A DNA stretch of 64,000 bases, from contig JAUSJT010000001.1 of NCBI GenBank assembly GCA_030647485.1, forward strand, positions 76,947 through 140,946, read 5' to 3'. Both the position numbers and the translations under genes were made by a program. The DNA is from a bacterium. GTDB lineage: Bacteria > Patescibacteriota > Minisyncoccia > Minisyncoccales > UBA10102. Under the pieces are notes generated by a model. That model made no database searches. It was given only the letters and a program-made list of their open reading frames with translations, and was not told the DNA's origin. Shown in pieces: positions 14,064 through 39,297 of this stretch (positions are counted from its first letter, which is position 1; every line of letters begins with the position of its first letter).

Positions 14064-14126
14064 TAGGACAAGCAGTTTTTTAAGTAGGACATTGCACAAT
14101 ATTGAAATTTGTCCTAGTATGTCCTA
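14064..14126. promoter_or_regulatory. Cluster of four TAGGACA/TGTCCTA heptamers at the sigma-factor promoter
   Basis: TAGGACA at 14064 and 14085. The reverse complement TGTCCTA at 14110 and 14120. Candidate promoter TTGCAC-17-TAGTAT (14092-14120) lies inside the cluster. Confidence 0.5.
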
Positions 14127-14134
14127 ATATCTCT

Positions 14135-14638
14135 ATGACAGATGAGATCCAAGACAATTTTAGCAAAATATATGACCAGTACGTCGCCAAGATCTACAGG
14201 TTCATATACTTAAAGGTAAGCTCCCAGGAGGTAGCAGAAGATTTGTCTTCGGAGGTGTTTATGAAGACGTGGGAGACGTACCGATTAGAAAGCACAAAAA
14301 TTGAGAATATTCAGGCTTATATCTACCAAATAGCCCGGAATGTGGTTGCTGACCATTACAGGACAAGGAAGATTAAAATAGTCTCCGTAGAAGAGACGAT
14401 TGATATCGTAGACTCGGCAGATTCCCTTGAAGACCAGGCAGTGCTTAACCTGGAAATGGACAGGGTTCAGAAGGCCTTGGCAACCATACAGGACGACTAC
14501 CAGAACCTTATCATTTGGCACTATCTAGACGAGCTTTCTGTGCCTGAAATAGCCCAGATTACAGGCAAAACCGAGGAGAACGTTAGAGTAGGCATACACA
14601 GGGCGCTCCAGGCTCTAAAGGGCAAGGTAGAGGTATAG
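14135..14638 (+). CDS. ECF-type RNA polymerase sigma-70 family factor
   Basis: Region 2 (IYDQYVAKIYRFIYLKVSSQEVAEDLSSEVFMKTWE) and region 4 HTH (LSVPEIAQITGKTEENVRVGIHRALQALK). The ORF-track start 14102 is TTG, so ATG 14135 is preferred. Confidence 0.85.
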   Translation: MTDEIQDNFSKIYDQYVAKIYRFIYLKVSSQEVAEDLSSEVFMKTWETYRLESTKIENIQAYIYQIARNVVADHYRTRKIKIVSVEETIDIVDSADSLEDQAVLNLEMDRVQKALATIQDDYQNLIIWHYLDELSVPEIAQITGKTEENVRVGIHRALQALKGKVEV

Positions 14639-14673
14639 GTGTAATAGAATCCCTTATTTTCCGACATAATACT

Positions 14674-15396
14674 ATGATGGACGAGAAAGAGCTTACAACT
14701 AAACTTTCTCTGCTCAAAAACATCAAGCCCAGAGAGAACTGGGTGATTTTTGCTAAGAGCCAAATCCTTAGCCTGGCTAAGGAGGAGGTACGCAGAAGCT
14801 GGATAGAAGATGTTTTTGCGACAGTATCGTTTCTCCGATATATGACAAAACCTGCTTATGTCCTACCCCTTCTTCTTGTCTTTGTGCTTGGAGGAGTAAC
14901 ACTGCAGGCCTCCAAGAACAGCCTTCCAGGAGACGCGCTTTTCACTGTTAGATCTATCTTTGAGAAAGCTACATTAAACAACCTGGAATTGGTGCAGAAA
15001 AGAATGGGAGACTTGCAGAAGATAGCGCAAGAGAACAAGGTGAGAAATCTCTCTGAAACCGTTAAGGAATTTAAGGAGAATGTGGGTAGGGTTTCCAGGA
15101 ACATAGCCCTGCTTGTGGATAAAGAGCCTGGCAAGGCTTTACAGGCAGGCTTGGAGCTTGTACAATTACAGAAAGACAAAGCTGCCATAGAGCAGATTTT
15201 GGGTACTGCCCTTGATGGAGACACCGAGAAAGAATTAAAGAGCGCCACGAAATACCTGGTTGAGAATGAATTGGAGGATCTTCTGACCAGAACGCTGACA
15301 GACGAACAGAAGAAATTGCTTGAAGAAGGAATCATTGCGTATCAGGTAGAAGATTATGAGTCGGCATTAGAAGCCGTATGGAAGATTTCTAATTAA
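14674..15396 (+). CDS. Putative anti-sigma factor / single-pass membrane protein
   Basis: Immediately follows the ECF sigma gene. One TM helix (PAYVLPLLLVFVLGGVTL) and a helical extracytoplasmic domain. Confidence 0.55.
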   Translation: MMDEKELTTKLSLLKNIKPRENWVIFAKSQILSLAKEEVRRSWIEDVFATVSFLRYMTKPAYVLPLLLVFVLGGVTLQASKNSLPGDALFTVRSIFEKATLNNLELVQKRMGDLQKIAQENKVRNLSETVKEFKENVGRVSRNIALLVDKEPGKALQAGLELVQLQKDKAAIEQILGTALDGDTEKELKSATKYLVENELEDLLTRTLTDEQKKLLEEGIIAYQVEDYESALEAVWKISN

Positions 15397-15507
15397 GAAT
15401 ATGGAACCGTCGCCTCAGGCGACTGGAATAAAAACAAGAGAAAACATTCAAAGGTCGAAACCAAAAGGTAAAAGTCAAAAATAAAAGTAAAAATCTTTAA
15501 AGTAAAA

Positions 15508-18500
15508 ATGAGTAAATTAAAACAGACATTCGCAACTGTGACCATTCTGTCTGTGCTCGTTTGGGGCGCATTGCCTGGCGGAGTTACAGCTCTTACTTCT
15601 GCTGAACTCGAAGCCCAGATCAATGCCCTCATGGCGCAGCTCAATACGTTGCAGGGGCAATTACCATCAAGCACTCCATCAACTTCTGGAGCTCCAGCAG
15701 CTTGCGCGGGGATAACCTTCGCAAGGAGTTTAACTGTTGGCAGTTCTGGAACCGATGTGAAGTGTCTTCAAGCATTGTTAAACTCAAGCGCTGACACGCA
15801 AGTTTCAGCTTCTGGAGTAGGTTCTGCTGGAAATGAATCTCTGTACTTTGGCAATTTGACCAGAGCTGCAGTAGTGAAATACCAGAACAAATATGCTGCC
15901 GAGATTTTGACTCCTCTTGGCTTGAGCGCTGGCACCGGATTCTTCGGAGCCGCCTCAAGAACCAGGGCGAACACATTACTTGCAGCAGCCCCAGTTGCAA
16001 CAACCCCAACTCCGACCCCAACCCCAACACCGACCCCAACCCCAACTCCAACAACGGGTCCTGTGAGCGTGGCGCTTGCATCAGATAACCCAGCAGCAAA
16101 AACGCTGGGAGCAAGCTCTGCTTACAACACCCTTGTGAAGGTGCAGGTGAACGGAGGTTCGGCAGGAGCAAGCGTTACATCTGTCACGGTAGAGCGCTTT
16201 GGCCTCTCTGTTGATACGAACGTTGCAGGAGTGTTGATCGTTGACGCAAACGGAAACAGAAAAGGAAATGTGGTAACGTTGGCAACCAATGTTGCAACCA
16301 TTCCATTTACCTCAGATCCCATTGTAGTCCCAGCAAACGGTTCAGCTGTCTTTAGCGTGCAAGCGCACATGGCTGCTGGAGCAACAGCTGGAACTATGGG
16401 CTTTAAAGTAACCGCAGTTTCTGGCACCCCCTCAGGATTGCCTTTGATAGGTAATCTGAACACGCTTTCTGCAACCACCGGAATTTTGGGTTCAGTAACT
16501 GTTGGAACAGTTTCGCAGACAACCGCGTCAGTGAGCGTGGACATTGGCCAGACCGATTATGTTCTTACCAAGTTCCGCGTTACTGAAGGCAGCGGCAACG
16601 AAGACGTAAAGGTAAGCAAAATTACCGTGTTCCAGAACGGAACCGCGTCAGACGCAGACCTTACCAATTGGGATCTTGTTGACATTAACGGAAACGTTTT
16701 GGCAACAGTAGCCCAGGCAACCAGCAAGACAGTGGTATTCAATCTTGCGACTCCTTACGCTCTTGCAAAAGGAACCAACAGAGACCTTACGGTCCGCGTT
16801 GACGTTGCTTCAGGTAGCCAGAGAACCGGACAAGCGATTATTCAGAATGACTACGACATGCAGGTTACCGGCACCTCAACTGGCCTTGGCATTTTGCCAA
16901 CCGCAGTAGCAATAGGAGGGAGTGGCGACACTTCTTTCCCGGTTGGTGATATTGCTTCTGGAACCGCAGGATACAACCTCTTGACGGTAAATCAGGGGAC
17001 AATAACCGTGAATAAGTCTGGGACTTCTCCGTCTGGCATTGTTGGCATTGGGCAGACCAATGTCACATTGGCAGTATTTGAATTGAATGCCCAGGGTGAA
17101 GACATCCAGATTCAGAGAGCGGATATTTTCGTCACCGGAACTTCAGTGGCAGCAGACTTTGCAGGCACTGTAAAGTTAATGACCGACGCAGGACAAACAC
17201 TTTACAGCGTGGCAGCTTCTACCGCAGCTCTCTATGATGACGACACCGCGGGAACCGATGTGGTAACGTTTTCAACGTACTACACCATTCCTGCAGGAAC
17301 CACTCTGAAGGTAAAGCTTGTTGCAGACGCTTCCAGCACCATTGATGGAACTGACACCGCTATTGGAAACATCTCTGATGTGTACTTTAAGCGCATGACC
17401 ACCAATACCTATGGAACAGCATCTGCTGCAACCACTGTGGCAGGCAACACGTTGACAGCAACAGCGGCAACCCTTACGGTCGTGAGCAACGCCTCGGTAG
17501 GCGCCACAACTGTGATTGAGGGCGGAAGCAACGTATTGCTCGGTTCTTACCTGTTGCAGACCAGCTCTGCTGAAGCAGTGAATGTTTCCAGCATTGCCAC
17601 CAGGATTGCAAGGGCGGGAGCTAGCACAACAGTCATTACGCCAGTTTCCAACCTTAAGTTAAAGAGAACAGACACTGGAGCGCAGCTTGGAACCATTATA
17701 TCGGCTCCAGCTACGATAGCCGATGGATTCAGCACCAATACCTTCTCGGTATCTGGCCAGCTGAATATTCCAGCATCCACAACCGTGCAGATTGACTTGT
17801 ACGCTAACCTCTCAACCGCAGCTTCAGACGGAGGCACCGATGACACCTTCATTACAAGCATTGCTGCAAGCGTAGTAAGCGGTGTGGGAGCAATATCTGG
17901 CACTTCTATTACTGGACCTACTGCCGCAATAACCGGAAGAACGCTTACCGTAGTTGAAGGAGGAACCTTGGCGCTGTCTATTGACACATCAGGGGCGGCT
18001 TCTTCTCAATTCTTCACCTCTGGACTTGCCGGAGTTGAAATGGGAAGAGTAAAGCTTGCCGCAACAGTTGAGGATATGAAGATAACCAGACTTGTGTTGA
18101 GAAGCGTTAACGGCGCTGGAAACGTCGCCAACGTGAAGTTGCTTGGCACAGGCCTTTCATCTGATCCTTCAGTTCCTCTTACTGCTGGAACCGCAACCTT
18201 TACCTTTGCTGCGGGCTCCGAGATGACAGTTCCCGCATACTCAAGCAGAGTCGTTACCGCAGTTGTTGACCTTACTGGCTCTGGCACAATCATTGCCAGC
18301 AGGCTGGGAGTTCTTGGATTCGGCACTGCAGACGCCCTTGGGGCAGGATCAGGCCTTACCGTACAGGAAAGATTGACCGGAACCGTTGAGGTTGCCGGAA
18401 CCAACACCTTTGCTGGAGCGGCAGGCGACGTGGTGTACTTCACTGCTACCGCAGCTGCAGGCACCAACACCACTCCCGGATTCTGGATGGTGACCACGGT

Positions 18501-19887
18501 GAACAGCACCACGCTGACCACTGCGGGAGCCCTTGCCTTGAACGGCGGAGCAACAGGAACCAGTTTTGCCACGGGTGATGTTCTCACCACGCTTACCAAG
18601 GTGAATACAGACGCAGGCAGCATTAACGCTATGGCAATGGCTTTGGCTGTTGGCGACCTGGTGTACGTGCACGACGCAAGCACTGTTGCAAACGATGGTT
18701 TCTACACTATTGCAACCGCAATTGCTTCAGGCGCAGATGCTACAGGAGCTACGACCTTGTCTGGAGACGCAATTTCTACCGTAGGCACGGCGTTGACTCT
18801 TGTTGCAGGCGACTCCATCACCAAGTTCACTAACTCCAATGGTCTTGCTGGCAACACCATGAGGTTTGAAGAGGTAGAGCCAGTAATTACAGTTGGTTCT
18901 ACTCCGGCCTCTGGTTCTGCCACGCCAAGCACCACGCAGACCGTAGCAACGTTTAACGTGAAAGCATCTGGAACAAGAGACATCACGTTTGACACCCTGG
19001 TAATTGAGAAGACCGGCGCAACCGCATCGTGGAACGTGAGAGACTTTAAGCTCTACAACGGAACCACGCTGTTGGCTGAAGTGTCCGGGCTTGCCTCAAA
19101 CACCAGAACGTTGACCGACGCTGGCGGCACCACGGCAACGGTTGAAGTAGCAGACAACGGAACCATTGGATTTGCTCCGAGCGACACCGTTCTCTATATT
19201 GACAGAGACGCAGAGCAGTTCTCTGGAGCAACTACCGTGAGCACCGTTACTGACTCTGACACTATTGTTCTTGCAGCTGATGTTGTTGGAGGCACTTCTG
19301 CCGCAACAGACTACCTTGTAAAGTACGGGGTAAGCGACACTGACGCTGCAGCGGCAACTACTGTTGTTGACGTAGCAGACGGCAGCAAATACCAGGTTGG
19401 CGATCAGATTTACGCCATTCCTTCCACTGCCGCTAACGCAGGTGGGGCAACCGTAGCCTCTGTGGGCGCAACATCCGTTACCCTCACATTGGCTGCCTTG
19501 TCTGGTATTGCAGATAACGCTGCTATTCTTGGCACCGAAGCTACTACCATATACAACCTCACGAGAGGCAGCAACACCGTAGTGTTTGGAGCAGCTTCCC
19601 CAACAACCGCGCTTGCTTCGCAGACTATTACCGCAGGCCAAACTCTTACGTTAACCGTAGAAGCGGACACAACGTACGTGAAGAGAGCCGTGGTAAGTTC
19701 TGCAATAAGCTCGGCAGCAGCAAGCTTTGGGATCAAGATCCCTGGAACAACTGGACCTTTGCAGGTTACGACATCGCAGGTTGAAGGATTTAACTGGGAT
19801 TACACCCCGTTGAACACCACAGGCACTGCGTTGCCTCGAACCGAAAGCGACAGCTATCCAGTGAACGGCCCAACTCTAAACTACTAA
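15508..19887 (+). CDS. 1459-aa secreted surface protein with an N-terminal coiled-coil/PG-binding anchor, TP linker and Thr/Ala/Gly-rich Ig-like repeats
   Basis: Signal peptide. PG_binding_1-like segment [15 protein letters not shown]...FGNLTRAAVVKYQNKY. Linker TPTPTPTPTPTPTPTPT. About 1250 aa of low-charge T/A/G/V-rich sequence typical of S-layer/adhesin proteins. Confidence 0.8.
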   Translation: MSKLKQTFATVTILSVLVWGALPGGVTALTSAELEAQINALMAQLNTLQGQLPSSTPSTSGAPAACAGITFARSLTVGSSGTDVKCLQALLNSSADTQVSASGVGSAGNESLYFGNLTRAAVVKYQNKYAAEILTPLGLSAGTGFFGAASRTRANTLLAAAPVATTPTPTPTPTPTPTPTPTTGPVSVALASDNPAAKTLGASSAYNTLVKVQVNGGSAGASVTSVTVERFGLSVDTNVAGVLIVDANGNRKGNVVTLATNVATIPFTSDPIVVPANGSAVFSVQAHMAAGATAGTMGFKVTAVSGTPSGLPLIGNLNTLSATTGILGSVTVGTVSQTTASVSVDIGQTDYVLTKFRVTEGSGNEDVKVSKITVFQNGTASDADLTNWDLVDINGNVLATVAQATSKTVVFNLATPYALAKGTNRDLTVRVDVASGSQRTGQAIIQNDYDMQVTGTSTGLGILPTAVAIGGSGDTSFPVGDIASGTAGYNLLTVNQGTITVNKSGTSPSGIVGIGQTNVTLAVFELNAQGEDIQIQRADIFVTGTSVAADFAGTVKLMTDAGQTLYSVAASTAALYDDDTAGTDVVTFSTYYTIPAGTTLKVKLVADASSTIDGTDTAIGNISDVYFKRMTTNTYGTASAATTVAGNTLTATAATLTVVSNASVGATTVIEGGSNVLLGSYLLQTSSAEAVNVSSIATRIARAGASTTVITPVSNLKLKRTDTGAQLGTIISAPATIADGFSTNTFSVSGQLNIPASTTVQIDLYANLSTAASDGGTDDTFITSIAASVVSGVGAISGTSITGPTAAITGRTLTVVEGGTLALSIDTSGAASSQFFTSGLAGVEMGRVKLAATVEDMKITRLVLRSVNGAGNVANVKLLGTGLSSDPSVPLTAGTATFTFAAGSEMTVPAYSSRVVTAVVDLTGSGTIIASRLGVLGFGTADALGAGSGLTVQERLTGTVEVAGTNTFAGAAGDVVYFTATAAAGTNTTPGFWMVTTVNSTTLTTAGALALNGGATGTSFATGDVLTTLTKVNTDAGSINAMAMALAVGDLVYVHDASTVANDGFYTIATAIASGADATGATTLSGDAISTVGTALTLVAGDSITKFTNSNGLAGNTMRFEEVEPVITVGSTPASGSATPSTTQTVATFNVKASGTRDITFDTLVIEKTGATASWNVRDFKLYNGTTLLAEVSGLASNTRTLTDAGGTTATVEVADNGTIGFAPSDTVLYIDRDAEQFSGATTVSTVTDSDTIVLAADVVGGTSAATDYLVKYGVSDTDAAAATTVVDVADGSKYQVGDQIYAIPSTAANAGGATVASVGATSVTLTLAALSGIADNAAILGTEATTIYNLTRGSNTVVFGAASPTTALASQTITAGQTLTLTVEADTTYVKRAVVSSAISSAAASFGIKIPGTTGPLQVTTSQVEGFNWDYTPLNTTGTALPRTESDSYPVNGPTLNY

Positions 19888-19954: not shown

Positions 19955-19983
19955 CCCCCACACTCATTCTTGAGTCGTGGGGG
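19955..19983. repeat. CCCCAC...GTGGGG hairpin element, copy B
   Basis: CCCCCACACTCAttctTGAGTCGTGGGGG, 68 nt after the stop of the 1459-aa gene. Confidence 0.7.
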
Positions 19984-20236: not shown

Positions 20237-20240
20237 TATG

Positions 20241-20301
20241 ATTGAGCGTATTGGACAAGGCCGTTCAACAAGTTATGTGATATCACGGATTAATACAGAT
20301 T
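20241..20301 (+). repeat. 61-bp duplicate of the Fic gene 3' end (copy 1)
   Basis: attgagcgtattggacaaggccgttcaacaagttatgtgaTatcacggattaatacagatt is 60/61 identical to 21357-21417. Confidence 0.9.
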
Positions 20302-20324: not shown

Positions 20325-20342
20325 TAGTTGATATATCGGAAT

Positions 20343-21908: not shown

Positions 21909-21973
21909 ATGTGGTTACAAAGTTATCCACAGCTTGACACCTTGCTATGCTTTTTAAGTATCGTATAATAGTT

Positions 21974-22012
21974 GTATCCGCATCAATCAGCAGTATCAGT
22001 ATTCATCAGCGG
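21974..22012. repeat. Phased ATCNG pentamer module
   Basis: gtATCCGcatcaATCAGcagtATCAGtattcATCAGcgg. Pentamers at 21976, 21986, 21995 and 22005. Confidence 0.75.
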
Positions 22013-22046
22013 TTTTAATATAAAGGTCGTAGTATTGAGTTTTCAA

Positions 22047-22084
22047 CATCCGCATTAATCTGTAGTATCCGCATTAATCAGCGG
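22047..22084. repeat. Phased ATCNG pentamer module
   Basis: cATCCGcattaATCTGtagtATCCGcattaATCAGcgg. Pentamers at 22048, 22058, 22067 and 22077. Lies 112 nt upstream of ATG 22197. Confidence 0.75.
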
Positions 22085-26861: not shown

Positions 26862-26867
26862 ACATGT

Positions 26868-27104: not shown

Positions 27105-27107
27105 TGC

Positions 27108-27366: not shown

Positions 27367-27384
27367 GCGGGTTTTTGTTTTCTC

Positions 27385-27412: not shown

Positions 27413-27420
27413 AGGTGTAT

Positions 27421-27657: not shown

Positions 27658-27661
27658 GTGT

Positions 27662-28050: not shown

Positions 28051-28089
28051 GTATCCGTATAAATCAGCAGTATCCGTATTAATCCGCGG
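28051..28089. repeat. Phased ATCNG pentamer module
   Basis: gtATCCGtataaATCAGcagtATCCGtattaATCCGcgg. Pentamers at 28053, 28063, 28072 and 28082. Confidence 0.75.
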
Positions 28090-28247
28090 CATATTGTTTT
28101 CCACAGGGCTGCGCCTTTACACCTGTGCTTGCAAAGAGGATAATAGATTAATTGGTCGCTATGACTTATAATTTTTTGCGTATCATTAGTTTTAACGTGC
28201 GCTCAAGCAGGGTCACTGTTTGAGTTTTCTTTCATTATAATAACGCC

Positions 28248-28287
28248 GATATCAGCATTAATCAGCTAAATCGGTATTAATCAGCGG
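28248..28287. repeat. Phased ATCNG pentamer module
   Basis: gatATCAGcattaATCAGctaaATCGGtattaATCAGcgg. Pentamers at 28251, 28261, 28270 and 28280. Ends 16 nt before ATG 28304. Confidence 0.75.
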
Positions 28288-31300: not shown

Positions 31301-34300
31301 TACGCGTTTTCCTTTACAACGTCAAATTCAACATTTACCGGGACTTTGTCTGGCACGCAATCGTTTGGGCAGGGAGCGTTTATGCCGCCTCGTGTTATAG
31401 GAACTACGCCTACTCCGGGATCATCTAGCGCGCCCACAAACACGAAAGTGGTTATAAACTTTTCCGATCCAATGGCAGATGATTCGGGAACGTATGTTCT
31501 TAAGAATTACGTGAAGCTTTTCACGGTGTCTGGTACCACGGAAACCGATGTGTCTTCAAGCGCCATTGATACTGTTACTCTTAGCACTTCAAAGCTTTCT
31601 GCCGTTGTTACCTTAAAGAGCACCTATAATTCAGGAGCGTTTGCGGCAAGTACAAAATATAGGGTGAAAGCGTTGGGAGGAGCAAAGGGAAGCAGTGGCA
31701 TGACACTTGGTATCCCTGGGCAAGAAAGCAGCGTGTTTTATACGCTTGAATTTACCACAGGTACAGGGGGAGATACCGCAGCTCCAACCGTTGTGGGATC
31801 GTATCCAAGCAATGGTGATGCTGGCGTGCAGGTGAACGTGGGAGCGATGAATGTTGGATTTAGCAAGGATATGGATCCTTCCACTATTTCTACATCTACC
31901 ATTACACTTACGGTAGGAAGCACTTCTGTGAATGGAACAGTAGAATATCGCCCGTTGGAGCGCATGGCATACTTTTTGCCCAGATCAGTTTTGAACGCAA
32001 ACACCGCATACACGCTTACCGTTACAACTGGAGTGACGGGATTGAATGGCACTCCGCTAGGAACTGCAGTAACAAAAACATTCACCACTGGATCTGCAGA
32101 CTCAATTGTTCCTGCAATGTCGTTTATGAACGCAGATGACTTTGGAATTGCCCTTACCTTTTCTGAACCAATGAATGCCGCAAAAGCGACTGATACCATG
32201 AACTGGGCAACATCTGTGTTGAATCCTTTGGCGTACAACGTGATTAAGTATGGATCAGTAGCGTTTGACCCTGCAAGCGTAGGCACTGCAGTTTCTCTTG
32301 CCAGCGCAACCTTCTCCTATGATACAACGTCAAGCACTGTGCTTATTAAGGGTTTGGCCATTGCAGCTGCTATTGGCCAAGAGTTGTATCTTTCTATGGA
32401 TGTATCCCCAAGCAGCAATTCTGCAAAAGATCTTTCTGCCAATGTAATCACCTCTGCGGGGAATACTAGCCGAACTACTATTGGAAACAGCTTAACCACA
32501 AAGGGATCTTTGGGGCCAATGGCAACAACAACAGACGCGTTTTCTGGAGGAGGAACGTTTATACCAACGAACTTTTCTTCCACTACCTTTGGGTTTGCTC
32601 CTCCTGTTAACGTGATGCCAAGAAATATGATGGCGGGTAAGACCACGACTTATATGGTTATGGTGCCCATTTCAAAGCAAATTCCAATTTCTGGAACCAT
32701 TGTGTTAACTTTTCCAACCGGTTTTGACGTTACTGCGGCCCAGCAGGATCTAAACAGCCCCATGAGGACTGACTTGAATGGTCCTGGGACCGGAACCCCA
32801 ACATTTAAATGCACGACCAATGTTGCAGGAGGAAAGTCTTGCGCTGGCGGAGCTACCGTTACAGGCGATACATCATCAGGAGATGACGCAACAAAAGGAG
32901 GTCTCGCAGATGACGGAGTTGTGGTGAATACGCCAGCCCGCACGGTTACCGTGAATCTTTCTTCTGCAACAAATAGTGGAGGCAACGATTTCTTGAACAT
33001 TGATATTGCAGGCATTGTGAACTCTTCGGTTCCCAAGGACTTTAACACTGCAGGATACACCGTTGATATTAAGACCAAGAACGGAGCTACGGTGCTTGAA
33101 TCATTGACTTCAATGCCATTCTTTATTCAGACAGCAGGAAGTTATACCTTGTCTGGAACAATTACTGCTACGGGCGCGACCGGCCTTACCGCAAAGGTAT
33201 ACTTAATGTCTCCAATGACGGGTCCCACTGAAACCACATCAGGTACTTTTGCAGCAAATGCCGGAGCGTATAGTTTTACCGCATTGCCAGCAGGGGAGTA
33301 TATGCTATTTACCGACCAGACCGTTACCTTGACAGGAGGGGAGTTTACCGGCAAGACCGCGCCAGAACGAGTTGTTATCAGCGAAGCAACAGACCTTGCT
33401 TCAGATACGGTAAACAACGACGTTATTGATTACGATTTTACGCTTGCCAACAACGCTTCTACTAACGATGCAACCGTTTTGGTTGATATTACTGGAACCG
33501 TCGGCGAGTTATTAGATGTTTTTGCGGGTTCTTCTATGGGAACAGGGTTTAAGGTGAAACAAGTAACATTGGATACAAGCCCCAAGACCGTTACTCTTAG
33601 ACTTGCAGTTGGAAAATGGTTTGTGGGAGTGGGGCCGCAAATGCCAAAGGGCCCAATGGGAGGGCCTCCTCCGGCTCCAAACTATATTATGCCAAGGCCT
33701 TTGGACATTACCGTTGTTACCATTTCCCCAGATACATTTGTGGAGAATAGCGGAACTGCAAACAACGGTACTTTGGCGTTTACTCTTACTTCTGCGACAA
33801 AATCCATTCAGGGATTGGTAAAAGACGGGTCGGGCAAGGTTATGGCAAATGCCGAGGTGTACGCGTATTCTCCGCAGGGAGGGTTTGGCACGCACGCTAA
33901 TACAGATACAGCTGGCGCGTTTACCTTAAGCGTTGTGGACGGTTCCTACATTGTTGGTTCGTTTATCCCAGGTATGCCTCCTTCAAAAGAAGTGCCTGTT
34001 GTGGTAACGTCTCATAGCACCCAGTATCTCTTAATTGACGGTGCAACCACTACTATAACTCCTGCAACCGCCGCAACCACATTTGTCTTAAAAGTGGCAA
34101 AACCCGATTATACTATTTCAGGCAAGGTGACAGACGGAACCAATACAGTGCAAGGAGCTTCGGTGTTTGCATACCGCACTGACGGGCCAGGGTTTGCAAA
34201 CGCAAACACAGATTCTGCTGGAACCTACACGTTGTATGTTTCCAATGGAACTTGGAAGGTAGGGTCGTTCTTGCCCCAGTACGGAAACTTGACAGAACAA

Positions 34301-36883
34301 ACTATCACGGTTTTGAACGCAAGCCAAAGCAACGTGAACTTTACGCCTACTGGAACAGGGACCTTTTACACGGTGTCTGGTAGGGTGTACCAAGACATTA
34401 CCGTTGGAGGCGGATTTAACGGGTCAGACGTTGCCATTCAAGGATCGTTTGTGAGAATATCAGGGAACAGCACTTCCAACGAAGCCATCACCGGAGCTGA
34501 CGGAACCTACAGTGTGAAAGTGCCCTCAGGTACAGGGTATACCATAAAGGCATCCGCTCCTGGTATTGGAGAACTAGCAGGGCTTTCTGGAGTAAGCGTT
34601 TTAGCAGACACTGCGAATCAAGACATTACATTGACAGTTCCCCGAACCATTACCATCACATTAAGCACGTCTGTTGCAGAGGCATTTATAGAATTGTTCT
34701 CATCTACGGGAGTGGGCGGCAGGGTTGTAATTAAGAACACCACGACCGGAATCTTGAGCGTGCCAAACGGAGACTACAGCGTGAATGTGCAGATGCCAGG
34801 AGTTGTTTTGACAAGCACTGCTATTGCCGCAACTACCGGAGATACTGTGTATAGCAATACTACAGGAATTGTGGCTGTGAACGGCGCTGAAGGATTAACC
34901 GTAACCGTGCCTACCTTGAGAACCGTATCTGGAACGGTCACAGACGGATCTGCCGCGGTTGCAGACGCATGGGTTGAAATTGCTGACTCTTCCAACGGAG
35001 CGCGCACAGGAGTAAAAGCAGGATCTGACGGGACATTCACCCTGAAAGTCACAAATTCTGCAACCGCCTACAAGATAAACGCAATGAAACCAGGGTACTT
35101 TAGGGATGCAACTTCTATAACCGTGACTTCGGCGGTGGCGAATGCAACTTTGACAGGTCTAACCATTGCCATGTCAGCTTCCACTCTTTCCATTACAGGC
35201 ACGGTCTACATCGGTTCAACAGGTGCGGCGAACGCTTTTGTGCGGGCAGAAAAGCAGGGAGGAGGATTTTCGGGAACGCAGGCTGATGCAACCGGAGCAT
35301 ATACCTTGCCGGTCAACGCAGGCACATGGAGGGTATATGGAGTTGCAGATGGATACGCCGAAGCTGCAGCCGCTAGCGCGGTTGTTATTGCTTCCTCTTC
35401 TCAAAGCGGAGTGAATATTACGGTGAGTACCACGGTTTCTTTGGCAGCTCCAAAGTCCAAGCCCATGATACCTGCTTCTGGAGGAACGCTTGAAGACGCA
35501 ACATCTGGAATAAAGATTACTGTTCCAGAAAAAGCTTTAGGTTCTTCTATGTCTGCCGGGAATATTCAGGCAAAACAGACCAATAACGTGAGGTCTACTT
35601 CAACTTCAAAGCCAGTGGGAGGAAAGGCGCAAGAGATTAAGGCAATTGATTCTGATAACAATGCGATCACAACGCTCCCGCTTCCTGTCACAGTTGAAAT
35701 GACCTTGACCTTGGCGGAAATGGTAGCTACTGTTTCTTCGAGCGATTCTTCAATTAACACCCTGGCTGAAGCAGATACCTTGAAAATGGGATATTGGGAT
35801 GATAGCGCGCAGTCATGGATAACGCTTGCTTCCACAATAACGTACAAGAATTCTGCTGGTACGGTGATTACAGATGAAACAACCATTGATACGGCAGCCG
35901 AGTTTAGCGCAACCGTGGCAACCGCAACAGTGTCTGCGAGCACAGATCACTTCTCTCTGTATGCTCCTATTTCGTCAGTTGGTTCTGCCCCTCCAGCAAC
36001 TCCAACAGGATTGGCTGCAGTGACCGGAGGCCAAACGCAAATAAATCTTTCCTGGACCGCGGTCACTTCTGATCCTGCTGCAACGGGATATGATATTTAC
36101 CGAAGCGCCACCTCTGGGGGAACATATGATCGCGTGGGATCTGAACCAACAGTGTCTTCTGGGTCTACTACCGCGTTTTCTGACACCGGGTTGTCTAGCG
36201 GAGTCACGTACTTCTATAAGATAAGCGCCGTGAACGCATCAGGAGAGTCTGCTTCTTCTAGCGCGGTTTCAACAGCAACCAGTACTGCTGGCGCAGGAGC
36301 TACTGGAGGTTCATCATCTACGTCTATCACAACGCCAGTAACCACACCGACTACGCCAACCATAACAACCACAACACCGACTACTACTCCAACAATTCCA
36401 ACCCCAACCCCAGCCACAACTACCACTCCAACAACGTTACAGCTCATTGCAATCCCAGCAGTTCCTGCTAACCCAACTACAGCTCAAGTTCAGGCGGCGA
36501 TTGTCGCAATTCTGAACAACATCAGCTACTTAAGAGCCCAGTTGGCCATACTCATAGCAACGGAACAGCCAGGATCAAAAGACGTGCCTCCGCATTGCCG
36601 CGGCATTGTATTCTCCAATGCTCTGAAAGTTGGAAGCACGGGAAATGAGGTGAAGTGCTTGCAAGCGTTGTTGAACCAGGATACTAGTACCAAGGTTACT
36701 TCTTCTGGAGTAGGTTCTCCTGGCAACGAGACCACACTCTTTGGCTCATTAACCAAGGCAGCAGTCGTGAAATTCCAAGAGAAGTACGCCTCAAGTATTC
36801 TGACTCCATCTGGCTTAACCGCTGGCACTGGAATCATTGGGCCAGCCACCAGAGCAAAACTCAACGCCCTGCTCGGCAAGTAA
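28304..36883 (+). CDS. 2859-aa giant surface protein with Ig-like/SbsA-like domains, carboxypeptidase-regulatory-like repeats, FN3, TP linker and a coiled-coil plus PG-binding anchor
   Basis: Signal peptide. Repeated G(T/K/R)V.D..g....A.V......g....TD..G.y.l motifs (e.g. GKVTDGTNTVQGASVFAYRTDGPGFANANTDSAGTYTLYV). FN3-like segment PTGLAAVTGGQTQINLSWTAV...YFYKISAVNASGES. C-terminal anchor paralogous to 26300-26745. Confidence 0.85.
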   Translation: MKTKVFQKVVSITLSITTILWSFGAPLGVLFAPGTARAAVAIVVSPGTVNANFPGPIMAGSAATAVAKISVTASVISQTVQAVAVNFSGTGFLTTDLLAIATGDTSGVALYEDTGNVAGTFVAGSDPVVTLAGTPNWTSSTTNITLTPATSVALTSTVAKIFYIVIKTAAPGTLLNGDQIVATIPAGGVVTTEGANSSSVTLTPVIADTVVPTISSVSGFSGSTTVTVNFSEPVQKVGGGNLAFVSVTNPLDYTDGGGTAEDIASAGIAHTAGQPMATITMDATIDAEDVDAGPATMAAGSNNIADMAGNVMLTTPARNFSSPLTITTVVVPSAIAGASYASESPLVQFAASGGTGSPSFTANSAGDTATLSALALTLGTDGKLTTATTLANTPGSFQVNIKVTAGTTATKLFTINVQPIGGGAIPGITGVAPAGAGTSSTPSIVITGSNTTFTSASVVTVSLPPGSADTNGITVGVITRNSATSITAPLTIDSTATAGSRDVRVVTGAEVVNMPGGFGVFTSGGSGLGLLLPTDAATSVLLPSPSFNFTPSSNTTTLNSYRITVASTSDFATKVWDYTFPKPSDGSNTNGSHCSSTGCNVNYGAGTFLILTQPVSLTPNTTYYWKVSTYAEATGSVSAAPVALETTGMRSLTTTASVSDSTPPTIMHRPVFQAKASTNLVMFARVMDNLATSTSTPALTTKIIYCPGSGCTPTTSTGQANGSSVGAGYFSYTIPSATISTAGTIVRYYLQASDGTTNPQNFYQTGTTPFQLTSVAAAEGSVTITGTVKDSTNTCATAVQSARVFAEGTGFSATTDGSCAFTLGGASPNGLFTGTYDLVALKDGYGNRTIDGIPAGATSIPFQLTSGAGGGFGGDTTKPTVRFTMPGNDMTNMPGGDSNMKIVVVFSKTMSQSSITSTNLTVNDATTGSLVPITANGSWIYYSTAPTNTPMIPPEANMAVWSLTSPNTLGNNKTIAVVVTSNVTDTAGNSVQGNQSDGSYAFSFTTSNSTFTGTLSGTQSFGQGAFMPPRVIGTTPTPGSSSAPTNTKVVINFSDPMADDSGTYVLKNYVKLFTVSGTTETDVSSSAIDTVTLSTSKLSAVVTLKSTYNSGAFAASTKYRVKALGGAKGSSGMTLGIPGQESSVFYTLEFTTGTGGDTAAPTVVGSYPSNGDAGVQVNVGAMNVGFSKDMDPSTISTSTITLTVGSTSVNGTVEYRPLERMAYFLPRSVLNANTAYTLTVTTGVTGLNGTPLGTAVTKTFTTGSADSIVPAMSFMNADDFGIALTFSEPMNAAKATDTMNWATSVLNPLAYNVIKYGSVAFDPASVGTAVSLASATFSYDTTSSTVLIKGLAIAAAIGQELYLSMDVSPSSNSAKDLSANVITSAGNTSRTTIGNSLTTKGSLGPMATTTDAFSGGGTFIPTNFSSTTFGFAPPVNVMPRNMMAGKTTTYMVMVPISKQIPISGTIVLTFPTGFDVTAAQQDLNSPMRTDLNGPGTGTPTFKCTTNVAGGKSCAGGATVTGDTSSGDDATKGGLADDGVVVNTPARTVTVNLSSATNSGGNDFLNIDIAGIVNSSVPKDFNTAGYTVDIKTKNGATVLESLTSMPFFIQTAGSYTLSGTITATGATGLTAKVYLMSPMTGPTETTSGTFAANAGAYSFTALPAGEYMLFTDQTVTLTGGEFTGKTAPERVVISEATDLASDTVNNDVIDYDFTLANNASTNDATVLVDITGTVGELLDVFAGSSMGTGFKVKQVTLDTSPKTVTLRLAVGKWFVGVGPQMPKGPMGGPPPAPNYIMPRPLDITVVTISPDTFVENSGTANNGTLAFTLTSATKSIQGLVKDGSGKVMANAEVYAYSPQGGFGTHANTDTAGAFTLSVVDGSYIVGSFIPGMPPSKEVPVVVTSHSTQYLLIDGATTTITPATAATTFVLKVAKPDYTISGKVTDGTNTVQGASVFAYRTDGPGFANANTDSAGTYTLYVSNGTWKVGSFLPQYGNLTEQTITVLNASQSNVNFTPTGTGTFYTVSGRVYQDITVGGGFNGSDVAIQGSFVRISGNSTSNEAITGADGTYSVKVPSGTGYTIKASAPGIGELAGLSGVSVLADTANQDITLTVPRTITITLSTSVAEAFIELFSSTGVGGRVVIKNTTTGILSVPNGDYSVNVQMPGVVLTSTAIAATTGDTVYSNTTGIVAVNGAEGLTVTVPTLRTVSGTVTDGSAAVADAWVEIADSSNGARTGVKAGSDGTFTLKVTNSATAYKINAMKPGYFRDATSITVTSAVANATLTGLTIAMSASTLSITGTVYIGSTGAANAFVRAEKQGGGFSGTQADATGAYTLPVNAGTWRVYGVADGYAEAAAASAVVIASSSQSGVNITVSTTVSLAAPKSKPMIPASGGTLEDATSGIKITVPEKALGSSMSAGNIQAKQTNNVRSTSTSKPVGGKAQEIKAIDSDNNAITTLPLPVTVEMTLTLAEMVATVSSSDSSINTLAEADTLKMGYWDDSAQSWITLASTITYKNSAGTVITDETTIDTAAEFSATVATATVSASTDHFSLYAPISSVGSAPPATPTGLAAVTGGQTQINLSWTAVTSDPAATGYDIYRSATSGGTYDRVGSEPTVSSGSTTAFSDTGLSSGVTYFYKISAVNASGESASSSAVSTATSTAGAGATGGSSSTSITTPVTTPTTPTITTTTPTTTPTIPTPTPATTTTPTTLQLIAIPAVPANPTTAQVQAAIVAILNNISYLRAQLAILIATEQPGSKDVPPHCRGIVFSNALKVGSTGNEVKCLQALLNQDTSTKVTSSGVGSPGNETTLFGSLTKAAVVKFQEKYASSILTPSGLTAGTGIIGPATRAKLNALLGK

Positions 36884-36885
36884 TT

Positions 36886-36928
36886 CCTTAGCTAAGCTAA
36901 GTTATCCACACCTTAGCTAAGCTAAGTT
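36886..36928. repeat. Two 18-bp direct repeats (CCTTAGCTAAGCTAAGTT), each holding the 10-bp palindrome CTTAGCTAAG
   Basis: Copies at 36886-36903 and 36911-36928, separated by atccaca. Together with the preceding tt this forms TTATCCACA. Confidence 0.8.
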
Positions 36929-36939
36929 TTGCCAAGAGT

Positions 36940-36965
36940 CCCGCTTGTGCGGGGCTTTTGGTTTT
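36940..36965 (+). terminator. Intrinsic terminator of the giant gene
   Basis: CCCGCttgtGCGGG followed by gcttttggtttt. Confidence 0.6.
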
Positions 36966-36980
36966 GGTATAGTGGAACAT

Positions 36981-37610
36981 ATGCAAAGGATTCTCTTATT
37001 GTTTAAAAATCCAGCAGTTGTTGTCTTCTTATTTGCCGTTGCGGGCATTGGTGCATTTTTTGGCATTCAATACGTGCAAGACCAGAAAGAATTGCGGTAT
37101 TTTGAAGGGCTGGCTGCCAAGCGTTCTGACGGGTCGCAGTTTGTTGAACAACTTCTCAAAGCAAGGAAGGACCTGAAAGATAGTAATAAAGACAATGATT
37201 TTGCCGCCTATGCGAACATTGGGGTGAATCTGAATATCTTTGGGGAAAAGGCAGAAGCGTTGCAGTGGTATGGGAAAGCGCTTCTCATAGATCCCGAGAG
37301 CCTCCTTGTTTTGAATAATGTGGCAGACATATACTCTGACCTTGGCCAGTATGACAAGGCAGAACAGAATTGGCTGAAACTCACAGAGCTATATCCCGAC
37401 AAAACCATGTTTTACCGTTCGCTCGGGTATTTATACTGGTACCGCATGCAAAAGAGCCCCCAAGACATTGAAGCATTGTTCAAGAAGGGGCTGGCAGCGA
37501 CGAATAACAATGCCGATCTTCTCACATGGCTTATTTCCTATTTCTCTGAAACAGGAAACAACGTAAAGTTCGCAGAATATGCCAATCTTCTCAATGCAGG
37601 AAAGAAGTAA
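36981..37610 (+). CDS. TPR-repeat protein with N-terminal TM helix
   Basis: ATG 36981 lies downstream of the terminator, so the ORF-track start 36945 is unlikely. TPR-like AEALQWYGKALLIDPESLLVLNNVADIYSDLGQYDKAEQNWLKL. Confidence 0.7.
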   Translation: MQRILLLFKNPAVVVFLFAVAGIGAFFGIQYVQDQKELRYFEGLAAKRSDGSQFVEQLLKARKDLKDSNKDNDFAAYANIGVNLNIFGEKAEALQWYGKALLIDPESLLVLNNVADIYSDLGQYDKAEQNWLKLTELYPDKTMFYRSLGYLYWYRMQKSPQDIEALFKKGLAATNNNADLLTWLISYFSETGNNVKFAEYANLLNAGKK

Positions 37611-39297
37611 ACAAGGCGTATTGGTTGGTATACTGTTCCTTATCCTTCCGCTGTTTGTTTCTGCAGACATCGTAGGAGAGAGGAAGAGTTTTTTTGTTGA
37701 TTCTTCATATGACGAGTTAAAGCGCGATACGCTTGAAGCAACCCTTCGCGTAGCCAATTCAAAGGCGTATTTTTACATTGAAGACGCCTGGTGGAATGGT
37801 TTGTCTTTGTCTGATCAATATGCAACCGAGCAGGTTGTTATTGCGTTGGCGCAGGAATTTGAGCAAAATATCTATCCTTCTCTCACGCAGGTATTCGGGT
37901 TTGAATGGAAGCCCGGCATTGACAACAATGACGCAATAACCGTTCTTCTGCACTTGATGCGCCAAGACGCAGGCGGTTACACCGACTACGGGAACGAATA
38001 CTCCAAATTGCAGAACCCGAAATCAAATGAGAGGGAAATGGTCTATGTAAACCTTCGCCAGCTGCACGCTCCCTTGATGAAAAACTTTCTCGCTCACGAG
38101 TTCACCCACCTTATAACTTTCAATCAGAAAGACAAAATAAGGAACGTTTCAGAAGAGGTCTGGTTAAATGAGGTGCGCGCGGAATACGCCCCGACCCTTA
38201 TGGGGTATGACGCGAACTATGAAAACAGTAACTTAAAGCAGCGCATCAAGAACTTTCTGGATAAGCCTTCCAATTCTCTCACGGAATGGGAAAGCAAGAC
38301 GTATGACTATGGCGCAGCAAATCTCTTTGCGCAGTATTTGGTTGACCAGTATGGGAAGGAGGTCCTTGTCGATTCTCTGAAATCTTCCAAAGTAGGCATT
38401 GCTTCCGTGAACGAGGCGCTGACGAAGGGAGCGTTTCAGGAGGACTTTTCGCAGGTGTTCACAAATTGGGTTATTACGCTGTTTTTGAACGATTGCGCGT
38501 ATGGCGCCAGGTACTGCTACCATAATCCCCATTTGGTGAATTTTCGCGTTATTCCACAGACGAATTTCTTCCCTTCTATTGGAGAAAATATCTTGGTGCT
38601 GAACAATGTAACCCAGGATTGGGTAGGGAATTGGTATAAAATAGTGGGAGGAAAAGACACGCTCAAGGTTGAGTTTAGAGGAGACCCCGGAGGAGTGTTC
38701 CGGGTGCCGTATATTATAGAAGACGCGCAACGGAAATTCTCTGTTCAATTTCTCTTTTTGAATGGGGAGAATAATGGGGAGCTGTTCATACCCAAATTCA
38801 ACAGCGACGTGCGGTCTGTTATCGTTCTCCCAATATCTCAAAAGAAGATTCAGGAATTGGACGAGAAACATCCTGCGTATCCATTTTCTCTCTCTATCTC
38901 TACAACGAAGCGATCCCCGGAAGCGGAGCAGGAACTTATCACCCAGCTTCTCTTGCAAATTGATGTTTTGAAAAAGAGAATCGCGGAGTTGCAGGCGGAG
39001 TTAGCTCGAACCCTCGGGAATCAGGGAGGTATTCCATGTATGCAGCTCACCAAGAACTTGTTTTTTGGTATGAGAGGGGATAGCGAGGTGAGTTGCCTCC
39101 AAGAGTTCCTGAAGTTGAAAGAACCGGAGCTGTATCCTGAAGGGTTGGTTTCTGGCAACTTCTTTGCTCTTACCCAAGCTGCGGTGGTACGGTTCCAGGA
39201 GAAATACCAATCTGAAGTGCTAGCTCCTCTAGGCCTTGCCCAAGGAACAGGATATGTTGGATCTTTGACCCGCAAGAAACTCAACGAGCTGTTCTAG
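37594..39297 (+). CDS. Secreted HExxH zinc-metallopeptidase-like protein with C-terminal coiled-coil plus PG-binding anchor
   Basis: Signal peptide from Met 37594. LAHEFTHLITF (HExxH). C-terminal coiled coil (LLLQIDVLKKRIAELQAELAR) then GDSEVSCLQEFLK...FALTQAAVVRFQEKY. Confidence 0.75.
   Translation: MQERSKQGVLVGILFLILPLFVSADIVGERKSFFVDSSYDELKRDTLEATLRVANSKAYFYIEDAWWNGLSLSDQYATEQVVIALAQEFEQNIYPSLTQVFGFEWKPGIDNNDAITVLLHLMRQDAGGYTDYGNEYSKLQNPKSNEREMVYVNLRQLHAPLMKNFLAHEFTHLITFNQKDKIRNVSEEVWLNEVRAEYAPTLMGYDANYENSNLKQRIKNFLDKPSNSLTEWESKTYDYGAANLFAQYLVDQYGKEVLVDSLKSSKVGIASVNEALTKGAFQEDFSQVFTNWVITLFLNDCAYGARYCYHNPHLVNFRVIPQTNFFPSIGENILVLNNVTQDWVGNWYKIVGGKDTLKVEFRGDPGGVFRVPYIIEDAQRKFSVQFLFLNGENNGELFIPKFNSDVRSVIVLPISQKKIQELDEKHPAYPFSLSISTTKRSPEAEQELITQLLLQIDVLKKRIAELQAELARTLGNQGGIPCMQLTKNLFFGMRGDSEVSCLQEFLKLKEPELYPEGLVSGNFFALTQAAVVRFQEKYQSEVLAPLGLAQGTGYVGSLTRKKLNELF

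Follow-up and report, generated by a model that had tools for sequence, protein, structure and literature searches.

The window analyzed here is a 64,000-nucleotide (nt) stretch of contig JAUSJT010000001.1 (positions 76,947 to 140,946) of assembly GCA_030647485.1, from a bacterium of the lineage Patescibacteriota; Minisyncoccia; Minisyncoccales; UBA10102. Its plus strand encodes five secreted proteins of 1459, 1160, 342, 2859, and 572 amino acids (aa), here called p1459, p1160, p342, p2859, and p572 (the last counts 567 aa if read from its second methionine), and four of these share a module in which an amphipathic heptad helix precedes a divergent PG_binding_1 domain. An original prediction, made from the DNA letters, had described five secreted proteins following a sigma factor gene; all five open reading frames (ORFs) lie where it placed them, and each, judged by eye, has a signal-peptide-like N terminus. 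The genes and modules in question are as follows, with positions numbered along the window.

14102 to 14638, plus strand: extracytoplasmic function (ECF) sigma factor with Sigma70_r2 and r4_2; its actual start is probably the ATG at 14135
14674 to 15396, plus strand: DUF5667-like single-pass membrane protein of 240 aa, a putative anti-sigma factor
15397 to 15507, plus strand: leader region of p1459
15508 to 19887, plus strand: p1459, with signal peptide, anchor module, (TP)n linker (aa 165 to 187), and immunoglobulin (Ig)-like array
15586 to 15984, plus strand: p1459 anchor module, aa 27 to 159, with Cys66 and Cys86 (190 to 205 bits with the module hidden Markov model [HMM])
22197 to 25679, plus strand: p1160, a secreted repeat protein rich in Ala, Gly, and Thr, without the module
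25717 to 26745, plus strand: p342, with signal peptide, small domain, long Thr/Pro (T/P) linker (aa 151 to 197), and C-terminal module
26329 to 26742, plus strand: p342 anchor module, aa 205 to 342, with Cys248 and Cys268
28304 to 36883, plus strand: p2859, a giant secreted protein with six CarboxypepD_reg domains, three Big_5 domains, fn3, a T/P linker, and a C-terminal module
36467 to 36880, plus strand: p2859 anchor module, aa 2722 to 2859, with Cys2765 and Cys2785
36945 to 37610, plus strand: membrane-anchored TPR protein (Pfam TPR), overlapping the start of p572 by 32 nt
37579 to 39297, plus strand: p572, an HExxH (MA-clan-like) metallopeptidase with a C-terminal module
38923 to 39294, plus strand: p572 anchor module, aa 449 to 572, with Cys487 and Cys506

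An HMM built from the four module copies and run against the six-frame translation of the window returns exactly p1459, p342, p2859, and p572 (domain E values of 1.7e-62, 1.6e-75, 3.5e-74, and 1.2e-56) and no fifth copy; at E values of 1e-56 to 1e-75, the claim that four of the five proteins share one module is borne out. The module measures about 125 to 135 aa and, as had been described, is N-terminal in p1459, where it directly follows the signal peptide and is succeeded by TTPTPTPTPTPTPTPTPTT, and C-terminal in p342, p2859, and p572. The T/P-rich linkers ascribed to these proteins occur in p1459, p342, and p2859, but p572 has none. An LPXTG motif with a hydrophobic tail, as in sortase anchoring, is absent from the C termini (...NGPTLNY, ...LYYVAAN, ...LNQLLGK, ...LNALLGK, and ...KLNELF). 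Pairwise identity among the modules is 32 to 50%, save between those of p342 and p2859, which agree at 89% of amino acids and, over 300 nt, at 90% of nucleotides, pointing to a recent duplication or gene conversion.

With the Pfam family PG_binding_1 (PF01471; gathering threshold of 23 bits), p342 scores 24.7 bits and p2859 scores 20.3 bits; p1459 and p572 have no match to it at an E value of ≤0.01, and a precomputed PF01471 match is present on many family members. An AlphaFold2 model of the p342 module, computed with 27 homologues, has a predicted local distance difference test (pLDDT) score of 90.3 and consists of a 29-residue helix (aa 7 to 35), a spacer of lower confidence, and helices at aa 62 to 71, 96 to 113, and 128 to 137. 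When this model is compared with the Protein Data Bank (PDB) by Foldseek, the top 14 matches are all peptidoglycan-binding-domain proteins, with probabilities of 0.99 to 1.00 (the top matches include entries 1lbu, 5tv7, 9h68, 6tci, 4c2h, 3bkh, and 5nm7 and the proteins SleC, SleB, CtpB, phiKZ gp144, and AP3 endolysin), and YcbB follows further down the list (0.57 to 0.66). By sequence, too, the module profile matches 1lbu (E value of 0.006). The model and its matches support a PG_binding_1-type three-helix domain as the globular part of the module, for which peptidoglycan binding is predicted. Neither Pfam nor NCBIfam holds a dedicated model for the composite of helix and domain, in agreement with the earlier view that the module had not been defined as a unit.

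For comparison, we used 80 listed loci out of at least 417 found in a scan of one genome per species, and counts of loci given below refer to this set. Across about 95 aligned copies, the helix has conserved hydrophobic residues at L8, I12, L15, I/L19, L22, L26, and L29; among the periods tested, its hydrophobicity power peaks at 3.5, and its best sequence match in the PDB is a designed coiled coil, the “Alphabody” of entry 5mj3 (E value of 7e-7). With a/d heptad periodicity over at least three heptads, the helix sequence has the properties of a coiled coil, and the amphipathic helix that had been predicted proves to have a clean heptad core. A heptad helix precedes the peptidoglycan-binding (PG) domain in 92 of 110 complete copies. 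In the 80 loci, each of the 92 helix-bearing modules stands singly, and none of the six tandem PG domains has a helix. Two tandem PG_binding_1-like domains, with the helix missing, were observed in each of three proteins (L007:12616-14589, L064:1-2616, and L062:15149-16405), the first of which shares cargo homology with p572 and the second with p2859.

The cysteine pair, which had been described as conserved, is not constant in the family: among 114 aligned modules from the 80 loci and the window, both cysteines are present in 56, neither in 45, and one alone in 13. Cys66 and Cys86 are the sole cysteines among the 1459 residues of p1459, and in all four module proteins cysteines occur in even numbers and in close pairs. 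From these patterns, the two residues appear to act as a disulfide pair that is optional and present in about half of the family.

The cargos joined to the module are as had been described, namely, Ig-like domains in p1459, six CarboxypepD_reg and three Big_5 domains with fn3 in p2859, and an HExxH motif in p572 (HEFTH at aa 173, accompanied by weak Peptidase_MA_2 and MXAN_6640 HExxH matches). PG_binding_1 domains classically occur on wall-lytic enzymes, as the list of Foldseek matches illustrates, and the zinc peptidase p572 has a cysteine near its module, so the module might conceivably be an enzyme-targeting or latency domain and its bearers wall-remodeling enzymes. Three of the four cargos (Ig-like, CarboxypepD_reg/fn3, and small domain), however, have no catalytic domain, the cysteines covary as a pair and include no lone switch cysteine, and the module of p572 is C-terminal, about 270 residues past the HExxH motif; with most cargos noncatalytic and the cysteines paired, we regard such a role as very improbable. 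A cysteine switch like that of matrix metalloproteinases was separately considered and ruled out by the paired cysteines and by the occurrence of the module on nonpeptidases.

The census of the module that the original prediction had called for, run as a trimmed-module profile against 1.84 billion cluster representatives, yields 21,848 matches at E values of ≤1e-3 (a band that must include ordinary PG_binding_1 domains), 11,019 at ≤1e-10, and 1,822 clusters at ≤1e-30. In the commonest architecture, the module occupies about aa 25 to 160 of proteins of 1,100 to 1,500 aa, and the named relatives are “peptidoglycan-binding domain-containing proteins” of Parcubacteria, Wildermuthbacteria, or Patescibacteria. 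The 80 loci come mostly from Patescibacteria-type metagenome-assembled genomes, with a few under other labels; the labels include Nealson-, Giovannoni-, Nomura-, Yonath-, Lloyd-, and Komeilibacteria and many Saccharibacteria, and the nearest homologues of p1459 point to Wildermuthbacteria. Judging from these names, the module as recorded here belongs mostly to Patescibacteria-type records, mainly those of Paceibacteria/Parcubacteria. Counted over the 80 loci and the window, the module is N-terminal in 71 copies and C-terminal in 34, on varied cargos, which supports a movable module that would function at either end of a protein and be shuffled between cargos.

The cargo of p1459 has no Pfam match. 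An AlphaFold2 model of aa 170 to 900, computed with 60 homologues, is all beta (pLDDT of 90.9) and forms an array of Ig-like beta sandwiches, for which Foldseek returns PrgB, integrin legs, antigen I/II, pilins, and the Haloferax surface layer (S-layer) protein 7ptu (E value of 4e-5). This predicted fold is compatible with an adhesin or an S-layer protein alike, and a specific S-layer relative was sought in the fold search, which gave generic Ig-like arrays and nothing specific.

An exchange of anchors on a conserved cargo appears to provide the decisive clue to the role of p1459. The cargo homologues P0229, P0233, P0236, and P0254 carry one to three SLH domains at the position of the module, and p1459 itself has no SLH domain as judged by Pfam. 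P0236 matches p1459 at 33% identity over 938 aa (E value of 1e-86) in an alignment that begins exactly at the first cargo strand, such that its signal peptide, three SLH repeats, and T/P linker are the counterparts of the signal peptide, helix-PG module, and (TP)n linker of p1459. Among the relatives of P0236, SLH-anchored proteins, named Gracilibacteria or Peregrinibacteria in the records, interleave with PF01471/helix-PG-anchored proteins within lineages of the candidate phyla radiation (CPR); the PG-anchored relatives include P0320 (42% identity) and P0189 (38%). A membrane TPR gene of the same kind follows both the SLH-type and the PG-type genes (homology to the TPR protein of the window, E value of 3e-13). 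Possessing a signal peptide, a wall-anchor domain, and a large Ig-like surface domain, p1459 fits the bipartite S-layer layout, and we propose it as a candidate S-layer-like major surface protein. We consider it probable that the helix-PG_binding_1 module is a swappable, noncovalent anchor to the producer's own wall with p1459 as its main bearer, where peptidoglycan binding, the self-wall target, and oligomerization through the helix are features that we infer.

The gene for p1459 belongs to a recurrent arrangement, of which the following further members are present in the window, p1546 and p199 lying outside the stretch that the original prediction covered.

7200 to 11840, plus strand: p1546, with three LTD domains and a NosD-like beta-helix (Pfam LTD, 7e-40; NosD, 1.1e-5)
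13438 to 14037, plus strand: p199, a DeoR-like helix-turn-helix (HTH) protein and candidate dedicated regulator (HTH_DeoR, E value of 0.0025)
39715 to 43782, plus strand: murB and secA, the downstream end of the cassette

Over the 80 loci, the recurrent order is p1546, p199, ECF sigma factor, DUF5667-like protein, p1459-type protein, an optional TPR protein, p572-type HExxH peptidase, murB, and secA. The conserved first gene encodes p1546, a protein of 1546 aa that has a hydrophobic segment at its N terminus and three lamin-tail domains but no anchor module; a homologue is present in 28 of the 80 loci, usually upstream on the plus strand. The TPR gene lies downstream of p1459-type genes in 12 loci, and a p572-type peptidase is found in 17, mostly directly after the p1459-type gene. 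When the 63 genes that encode an N-terminal module and have at least 2.5 kb of upstream sequence are taken as a base, a p199 gene lies upstream in 45, and the sigma factor and DUF5667-like genes lie immediately upstream in 35 (the membrane protein gene itself in 36); because these are results of single-sequence searches, 35/63 and 45/63 are lower bounds. Linkage to p1459-type genes is thereby more frequent for the DeoR-like gene (45 of 63) than for the sigma pair (35 of 63), and one subclade has the DeoR-like gene and is missing the sigma pair. Next to the surface-protein cluster, on its downstream side, are murB and secA and, farther along, secD, secF, and murJ (39715 to 46269 and 54140 to 55510).

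The regulators differ in how well they can be named. The ECF identity of the sigma factor that had been proposed stands (TIGR02937, 87.6 bits, with the cutoff at 42.9; in Pfam, Sigma70_r2 and r4_2 match and region 3 does not), but family searches do not back its proposed anti-sigma partner, which has no Pfam or NCBIfam match at an E value of ≤0.01 (DUF5667, 0.67) and no Cys or His motif of the zinc-binding anti-sigma (ZAS) type (HxxxCxxC) in its cytoplasmic segment of about 58 aa. The protein has one hydrophobic span at about aa 60 to 80, its gene is separated from the sigma gene by 35 nt, and it is in operational terms what an anti-sigma factor would be, a single-pass membrane protein coinherited with the adjacent ECF sigma gene; its counterpart PMX_810_sub_00351, discussed below, is annotated DUF5667. 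The anti-sigma assignment is putative, and a literature search for DUF5667 yielded no paper. The HTH_DeoR match of p199 (E value of 0.0025) is under Pfam's cutoff, and the syntenic PMX_810_sub_00353 is annotated as a DeoR-type HTH protein. NCBIfam contains no specific family for p1459, p342, or the putative anti-sigma factor.

The same cassette can be recognized in published expression data. In “Ca. Yanofskyibacterium,” PMX_810_sub_00353, 00352, 00351, and 00350 are a DeoR-type HTH protein, an ECF sigma factor, a DUF5667 protein, and a PG-binding-domain (PGBD) protein with a signal peptide (PMC10936435), an order equal to that of p199, sigma factor, membrane protein, and p1459 in the window. 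Their day-14 values, apparently on a log scale, are 10.4 for 00353, 7.6 for 00352, 12.5 for 00351, and 16.7 for 00350, the last being among the most highly expressed genes of unknown function in the metatranscriptome; PGBD proteins of Paceibacteria had already been singled out there for their very high expression (PMC10936435). Microscopy has revealed S-layers on Patescibacteria (PMC13293708), and the literature searched gives neither a Paceibacteria lattice protein nor its anchor. The idea of a display system that makes up a main component of the cell surface thus receives indirect support from the SLH swap and from the published expression data.

Kuroda et al. read these highly expressed PGBD proteins as host-attachment factors (PMC10936435), a view under which the PG_binding_1 part would bind the wall of a partner cell and the cargos would be adhesins or degradative enzymes aimed at the host or prey. 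Patescibacteria are episymbionts, the best structural matches of the p1459 cargo are adhesins (PrgB, antigen I/II, and pilins), and a peptidase, p572, bears the same module, all of which would suit attachment to a partner. We nevertheless find this view unlikely, since homologues have SLH, which anchors to the producer's own wall polymers, at the position of the module, and since a terminal anchor beside a flexible T/P linker, with the cargo distal, has the geometry of self-display. The organism also encodes MurB and MurJ beside the cluster and is therefore expected to make peptidoglycan of its own. Methanogenic archaea, in turn, are not known to have murein. The hosts considered by Kuroda et al. 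are methanogenic archaea (Methanothrix-like cells are mentioned) (PMC10936435).

Between the p1459 gene and the TPR-p572 pair lie the other surface genes, together with features that bear on how the region is organized.

19956 to 19982, plus strand: terminator-like hairpin CCCCACACTCAT..TGAGTCGTGGGG 3' of p1459
20328 to 21419, plus strand: Fic/DOC protein with a winged HTH (Pfam Fic, 8.7e-15)
21975 to 22084, plus strand: 19-bp repeats TATCCGCATTAATCAGCGG upstream of p1160, a tandem pair and one more copy
27644 to 28030, plus strand: DUF5615 (PIN-like) toxin-type gene (Pfam, 1.3e-19)
28052 to 28287, plus strand: two pairs of the 19-bp repeat TATCCGCATTAATCAGCGG upstream of p2859
39337 to 39364, plus strand: terminator-like hairpin 3' of p572

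What the original prediction took for a contiguous island of surface genes is interrupted by the Fic-HTH gene, the DUF5615 gene, and other toxin-antitoxin-like small ORFs, and it is not peculiar to this genome; comparison of the loci suggests a phylum-wide conserved cassette that has been split by a lineage-specific insertion of about 17 kb, with Fic as its first gene, followed by p1160, p342, toxin-antitoxin genes, and p2859. The genes for p1459 and p572 are about 17.7 kb apart here, with Fic, p1160, p342, two toxin-antitoxin-like units, and p2859 between them. None of the 80 related loci has a homologue of p1160, and p342-type cargo recurs in 2 and p2859-type cargo in 9 of them. A 62-nt direct repeat brackets the Fic gene (20240 to 20301 and 21356 to 21417, 98% identity), and the upstream one of its two copies duplicates the 3' end of a Fic-type ORF, pointing to the insertion of a cassette or to recombination. 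Toxin-antitoxin-like units were observed at the cassette junctions (11841 to 13437 and 26746 to 28030), namely, a PIN-domain gene at 12149 to 12523 with a small ORF upstream and, before the DUF5615 gene (26746 to 27643), small ORFs that by eye resemble DUF433-type and RelE-type genes.

The inserted genes have sequence elements of their own. The 19-bp repeat TATCCGCATTAATCAGCGG has seven matches in the window at ≤3 mismatches, against 0 expected, mostly as tandem pairs; they are confined to the regions upstream of p1160 and p2859 (21975 to 22012, 22066 to 22084, 28052 to 28089, and 28250 to 28287) and absent from p1459 and p572, and the repeat may be a shared operator of the inserted genes. Weaker relatives of TATCCGCATTAATCAGCGG flank the Fic-HTH gene. 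A G/C-clamped hairpin, CCCCACACTCAT..TGAGTnGTGGGG, occurs in three copies (0 expected), located in the gap between the PIN-domain gene and p199 (12923 to 12949), after p1459 (19956 to 19982), and after p572 (39337 to 39364), and related hairpins are present at about 26749 to 26780, after p342, and at 39301 to 39335; it looks like a reused terminator or a small repeat element. As further observations, a DnaA-box-like TT(T/A)TCCACA box occurs at 21915 to 21923, 28095 to 28103, and 36901 to 36909, and reversed at 14042 to 14062 and about 12955, near promoter-like TTGACA elements (it is also found upstream of p1459-type genes in L013, L027, L045, and L073), and in the intergenic region between p2859 and the TPR gene (36884 to 36944) a 17-nt direct repeat, CTTAGCTAAGCTAAGTT, stands on both sides of ATCCACAC.

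These arrangements bear on the proposal that the whole 25-kb region is one envelope regulon, with all five secreted proteins switched together by the ECF sigma factor. Every gene is on one strand, and the sigma and DUF5667 genes directly precede p1459-type genes in 35 of the 63 cases, as such a regulon would have it. Yet p1459 and TPR-p572 alone belong to the conserved cassette, to which p1160, lacking homologues in the 80 loci, is foreign; p1459 and p572 are each followed by a hairpin, and p342 by a related one; and p1160 and p2859 have a private 19-bp repeat in common. Several loci have, by eye, a sigma-70-like promoter between the DUF5667 and p1459-type genes, in some cases together with a structured leader, and the subclade noted above has a DeoR-like gene and no sigma pair. 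Published values are 7.6 and 0 for the sigma gene, as opposed to 16.7 and 15.9 for its neighbor (PMC10936435). A search for an ECF-type promoter (GGAAC...CGTC) upstream of p1459 found GGAAC at 15403 and no convincing −10 element at the right spacing. The sequence offers no evidence for a single sigma-controlled regulon, which we hold to be quite improbable; as far as gene content and order can tell, the cassette data argue against one coregulated 25-kb unit and favor a conserved link between the regulators and p1459.

A candidate structured leader RNA lies between the DUF5667 and p1459-type genes in many of the related loci. The element comprises an outer stem, P1, and within it a conserved hairpin, P2 (UCGUGGCC...GGUCGCGA), which contains G-U pairs on the plus strand, and an invariant single-stranded AAGGUCGA stands right before the 3' arm of P1, in most loci 42 to 69 nt from the ATG (plus-strand examples are L025:9767-9825, L059:9609-9741, L022:9804-9898, and L013:9765-9872). 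An alignment of 12 leaders has 95.8% of its cells paired and compensatory changes in 9 of its 16 pairs; its percentage paired, number of compensatory pairs, and covariation score were matched by none of 500 shuffles, and register-slid controls collapse. In a control for the stem arms, the true positions beat shuffles at a p value of 4e-10 and nearby decoys modestly, at 0.007, and owing to this modest edge over decoy positions we relied on the alignment covariation instead. A covariance model, R1, gives 23 matches at E values of ≤1 in 1.13 Mb (20 of them below 0.01), all on the plus strand and directly upstream of a p1459-type gene, and in 10 loci plus the window no Rfam family matches the leader at gathering thresholds. 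In the window itself, R1 has no significant match even with filters off, and its leader is reduced to a short hairpin (GTCGCC-TCA-GGCGAC) and a AAAGGTCGA box that stands 55 nt ahead of the ATG; we accordingly attribute the leader RNA to the related loci and not, in any demonstrable form, to the window. A second class of leader, with the inner hairpin UUUUGAAUAU...AUAUUCAAAAG, was seen by eye in L030, L031, L037, L038, and L040.

Returning to the self-wall anchor, which we favor, we infer a mechanism in which peptidoglycan binding, a target in the cell's own and not the host's wall, helix oligomerization, the disulfide, an S-layer lattice, and sigma control would fit together as follows. In the anchor, an amphipathic helix of about three heptads would be joined through a short, flexible spacer to a divergent PG_binding_1 domain of three helices; in about half of the family, the disulfide would staple helix 1 of this domain to the strand preceding the domain and so stabilize the domain outside the cell. 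Module proteins would be exported by Sec, with subsequent removal of the signal peptide, whereupon the PG_binding_1 part would bind the producer's own peptidoglycan noncovalently and the helix would zip with those of neighboring molecules, making attachment multivalent and tighter and perhaps providing lattice contacts. The module would have been shuffled onto different cargos, recently between p342 and p2859 in the window genome, to which the insertion that splits the cassette would have brought further surface cargos. The TPR protein and the wall-anchored HExxH peptidase may aid the assembly or maturation of the p1459 layer, and the DeoR-like protein, along with the ECF sigma factor and its DUF5667 partner, may tune expression.

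Several points weigh against the self-wall anchor and the S-layer role of p1459. Of the four module copies in the window, one reaches Pfam's curated cutoff. Twelve single PG domains, some of them on p1459-type proteins, have no helix, and the helix is thus not essential for the anchor; several top census matches hold multiple helix-bearing modules (the matching stretches start at profile positions 3 to 7), and, on both counts, the notion that the helix replaces tandem PG domains is kept as a weak idea. The fold matches of the p1459 cargo are generic Ig-like arrays, among which adhesins outrank the archaeal S-layer protein, and SLH domains are also found on proteins other than S-layer proteins. 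Finally, PMX_810_sub_00350, at 692 aa, is equated with p1459 through synteny and annotation and not through its sequence.

Beyond this explanation, an extended reading, which is possible but on balance doubtful, would make the helix-PG unit a general wall-display anchor of Paceibacteria and the p1459-type proteins their S-layer proteins, with the coiled coil setting lattice geometry and supplying avidity for thin murein. These proteins would then be served by a dedicated control cassette (DeoR-like HTH protein, ECF sigma factor, DUF5667 sensor, TPR assembly factor, and wall-anchored maturation peptidase) that in many lineages includes the leader RNA (P1/P2, AAGGUCGA) regulating or stabilizing the mRNA.

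Two observations concern the remainder of the window. The stretch from 46308 to 50437 encodes a 342-aa protein with Sigma70_r4 and HARE-HTH, a 450-aa ORF, and a TrwB-like homologue of type IV coupling proteins with a treble-clef zinc finger, and at 53759 to 54072 the minus strand encodes a bacterial class A RNase P RNA (123.8 bits), among genes that are otherwise on the plus strand.

A large share of bacterial diversity is accounted for by Patescibacteria (CPR), which live on other cells and whose envelope proteins are almost entirely unassigned. The anchor unit is searchable and so offers a candidate surface proteome for any Paceibacteria genome, and a candidate major surface protein family is linked in its evolution with SLH-anchored proteins; further outcomes are a conserved cassette for regulation and assembly and a candidate cis-regulatory RNA. 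Should the anchor indeed bind murein in the form of a coiled-coil oligomer, it would also serve in engineering as a compact display tag.

Set beside known systems, the module is closest in fold to the PG_binding_1 (PF01471) wall enzymes (the Zn DD-peptidase of Streptomyces albus [1lbu], phiKZ gp144, SleB/SleC, CtpB, and YcbB), with which it shares the three-helix fold, the signature G..G..V..LQ ... FG..T..AV..FQ ... G.vG..T...L, and a terminal, modular domain presumed to contact murein noncovalently. It differs from them by two insertions, one of about 10 aa after helix 1 and one of about 10 aa (KYAxxxLTPxGL) after FQ, by its heptad helix and optional cysteine pair, and by its cargos, which are nonenzymatic display proteins and a major surface protein. 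LysM repeats and tandem PG_binding_1 domains follow the same principle, in that the weak affinity of a single domain is raised through multivalency, but the multivalency of the module would come from the coiled coil and not from repeats; some p572 and p2859 orthologues have tandem helix-less PG domains, as tandem PG_binding_1 anchors do. ExeA/GspA are PG_binding_1 proteins that multimerize on peptidoglycan.

In Firmicutes, the SLH, CWB2, and SH3 anchors of S-layer and other surface proteins are likewise bipartite with a surface domain, of one type across many proteins per genome, and swapped between homologous cargos, Ig-like arrays being the commonest surface fold (bioRxiv 10.1101/2025.04.02.646754). 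The presumed ligand of the module is peptidoglycan and not a secondary wall polymer, a coiled coil is added, and its bearers belong to a CPR phylum; PG_binding or peptidoglycan-binding anchors have 0 occurrences in that study (bioRxiv 10.1101/2025.04.02.646754). The extracellular PGBD proteins of “Ca. Yanofskyibacterium,” Microsyncoccus, and Minisyncoccus are, by synteny, probably of the same family and cassette, but they were read as host-attachment enzymes, and the helix-plus-domain unit, its distribution, the cassette, and the SLH swap were not defined there (PMC10936435). The generic “peptidoglycan-binding” label and the principle of swappable wall anchors were thus known, and what appears new is the helix-plus-domain unit as a Patescibacteria-specific variant, which adds no new category of anchor but extends one of a known kind.

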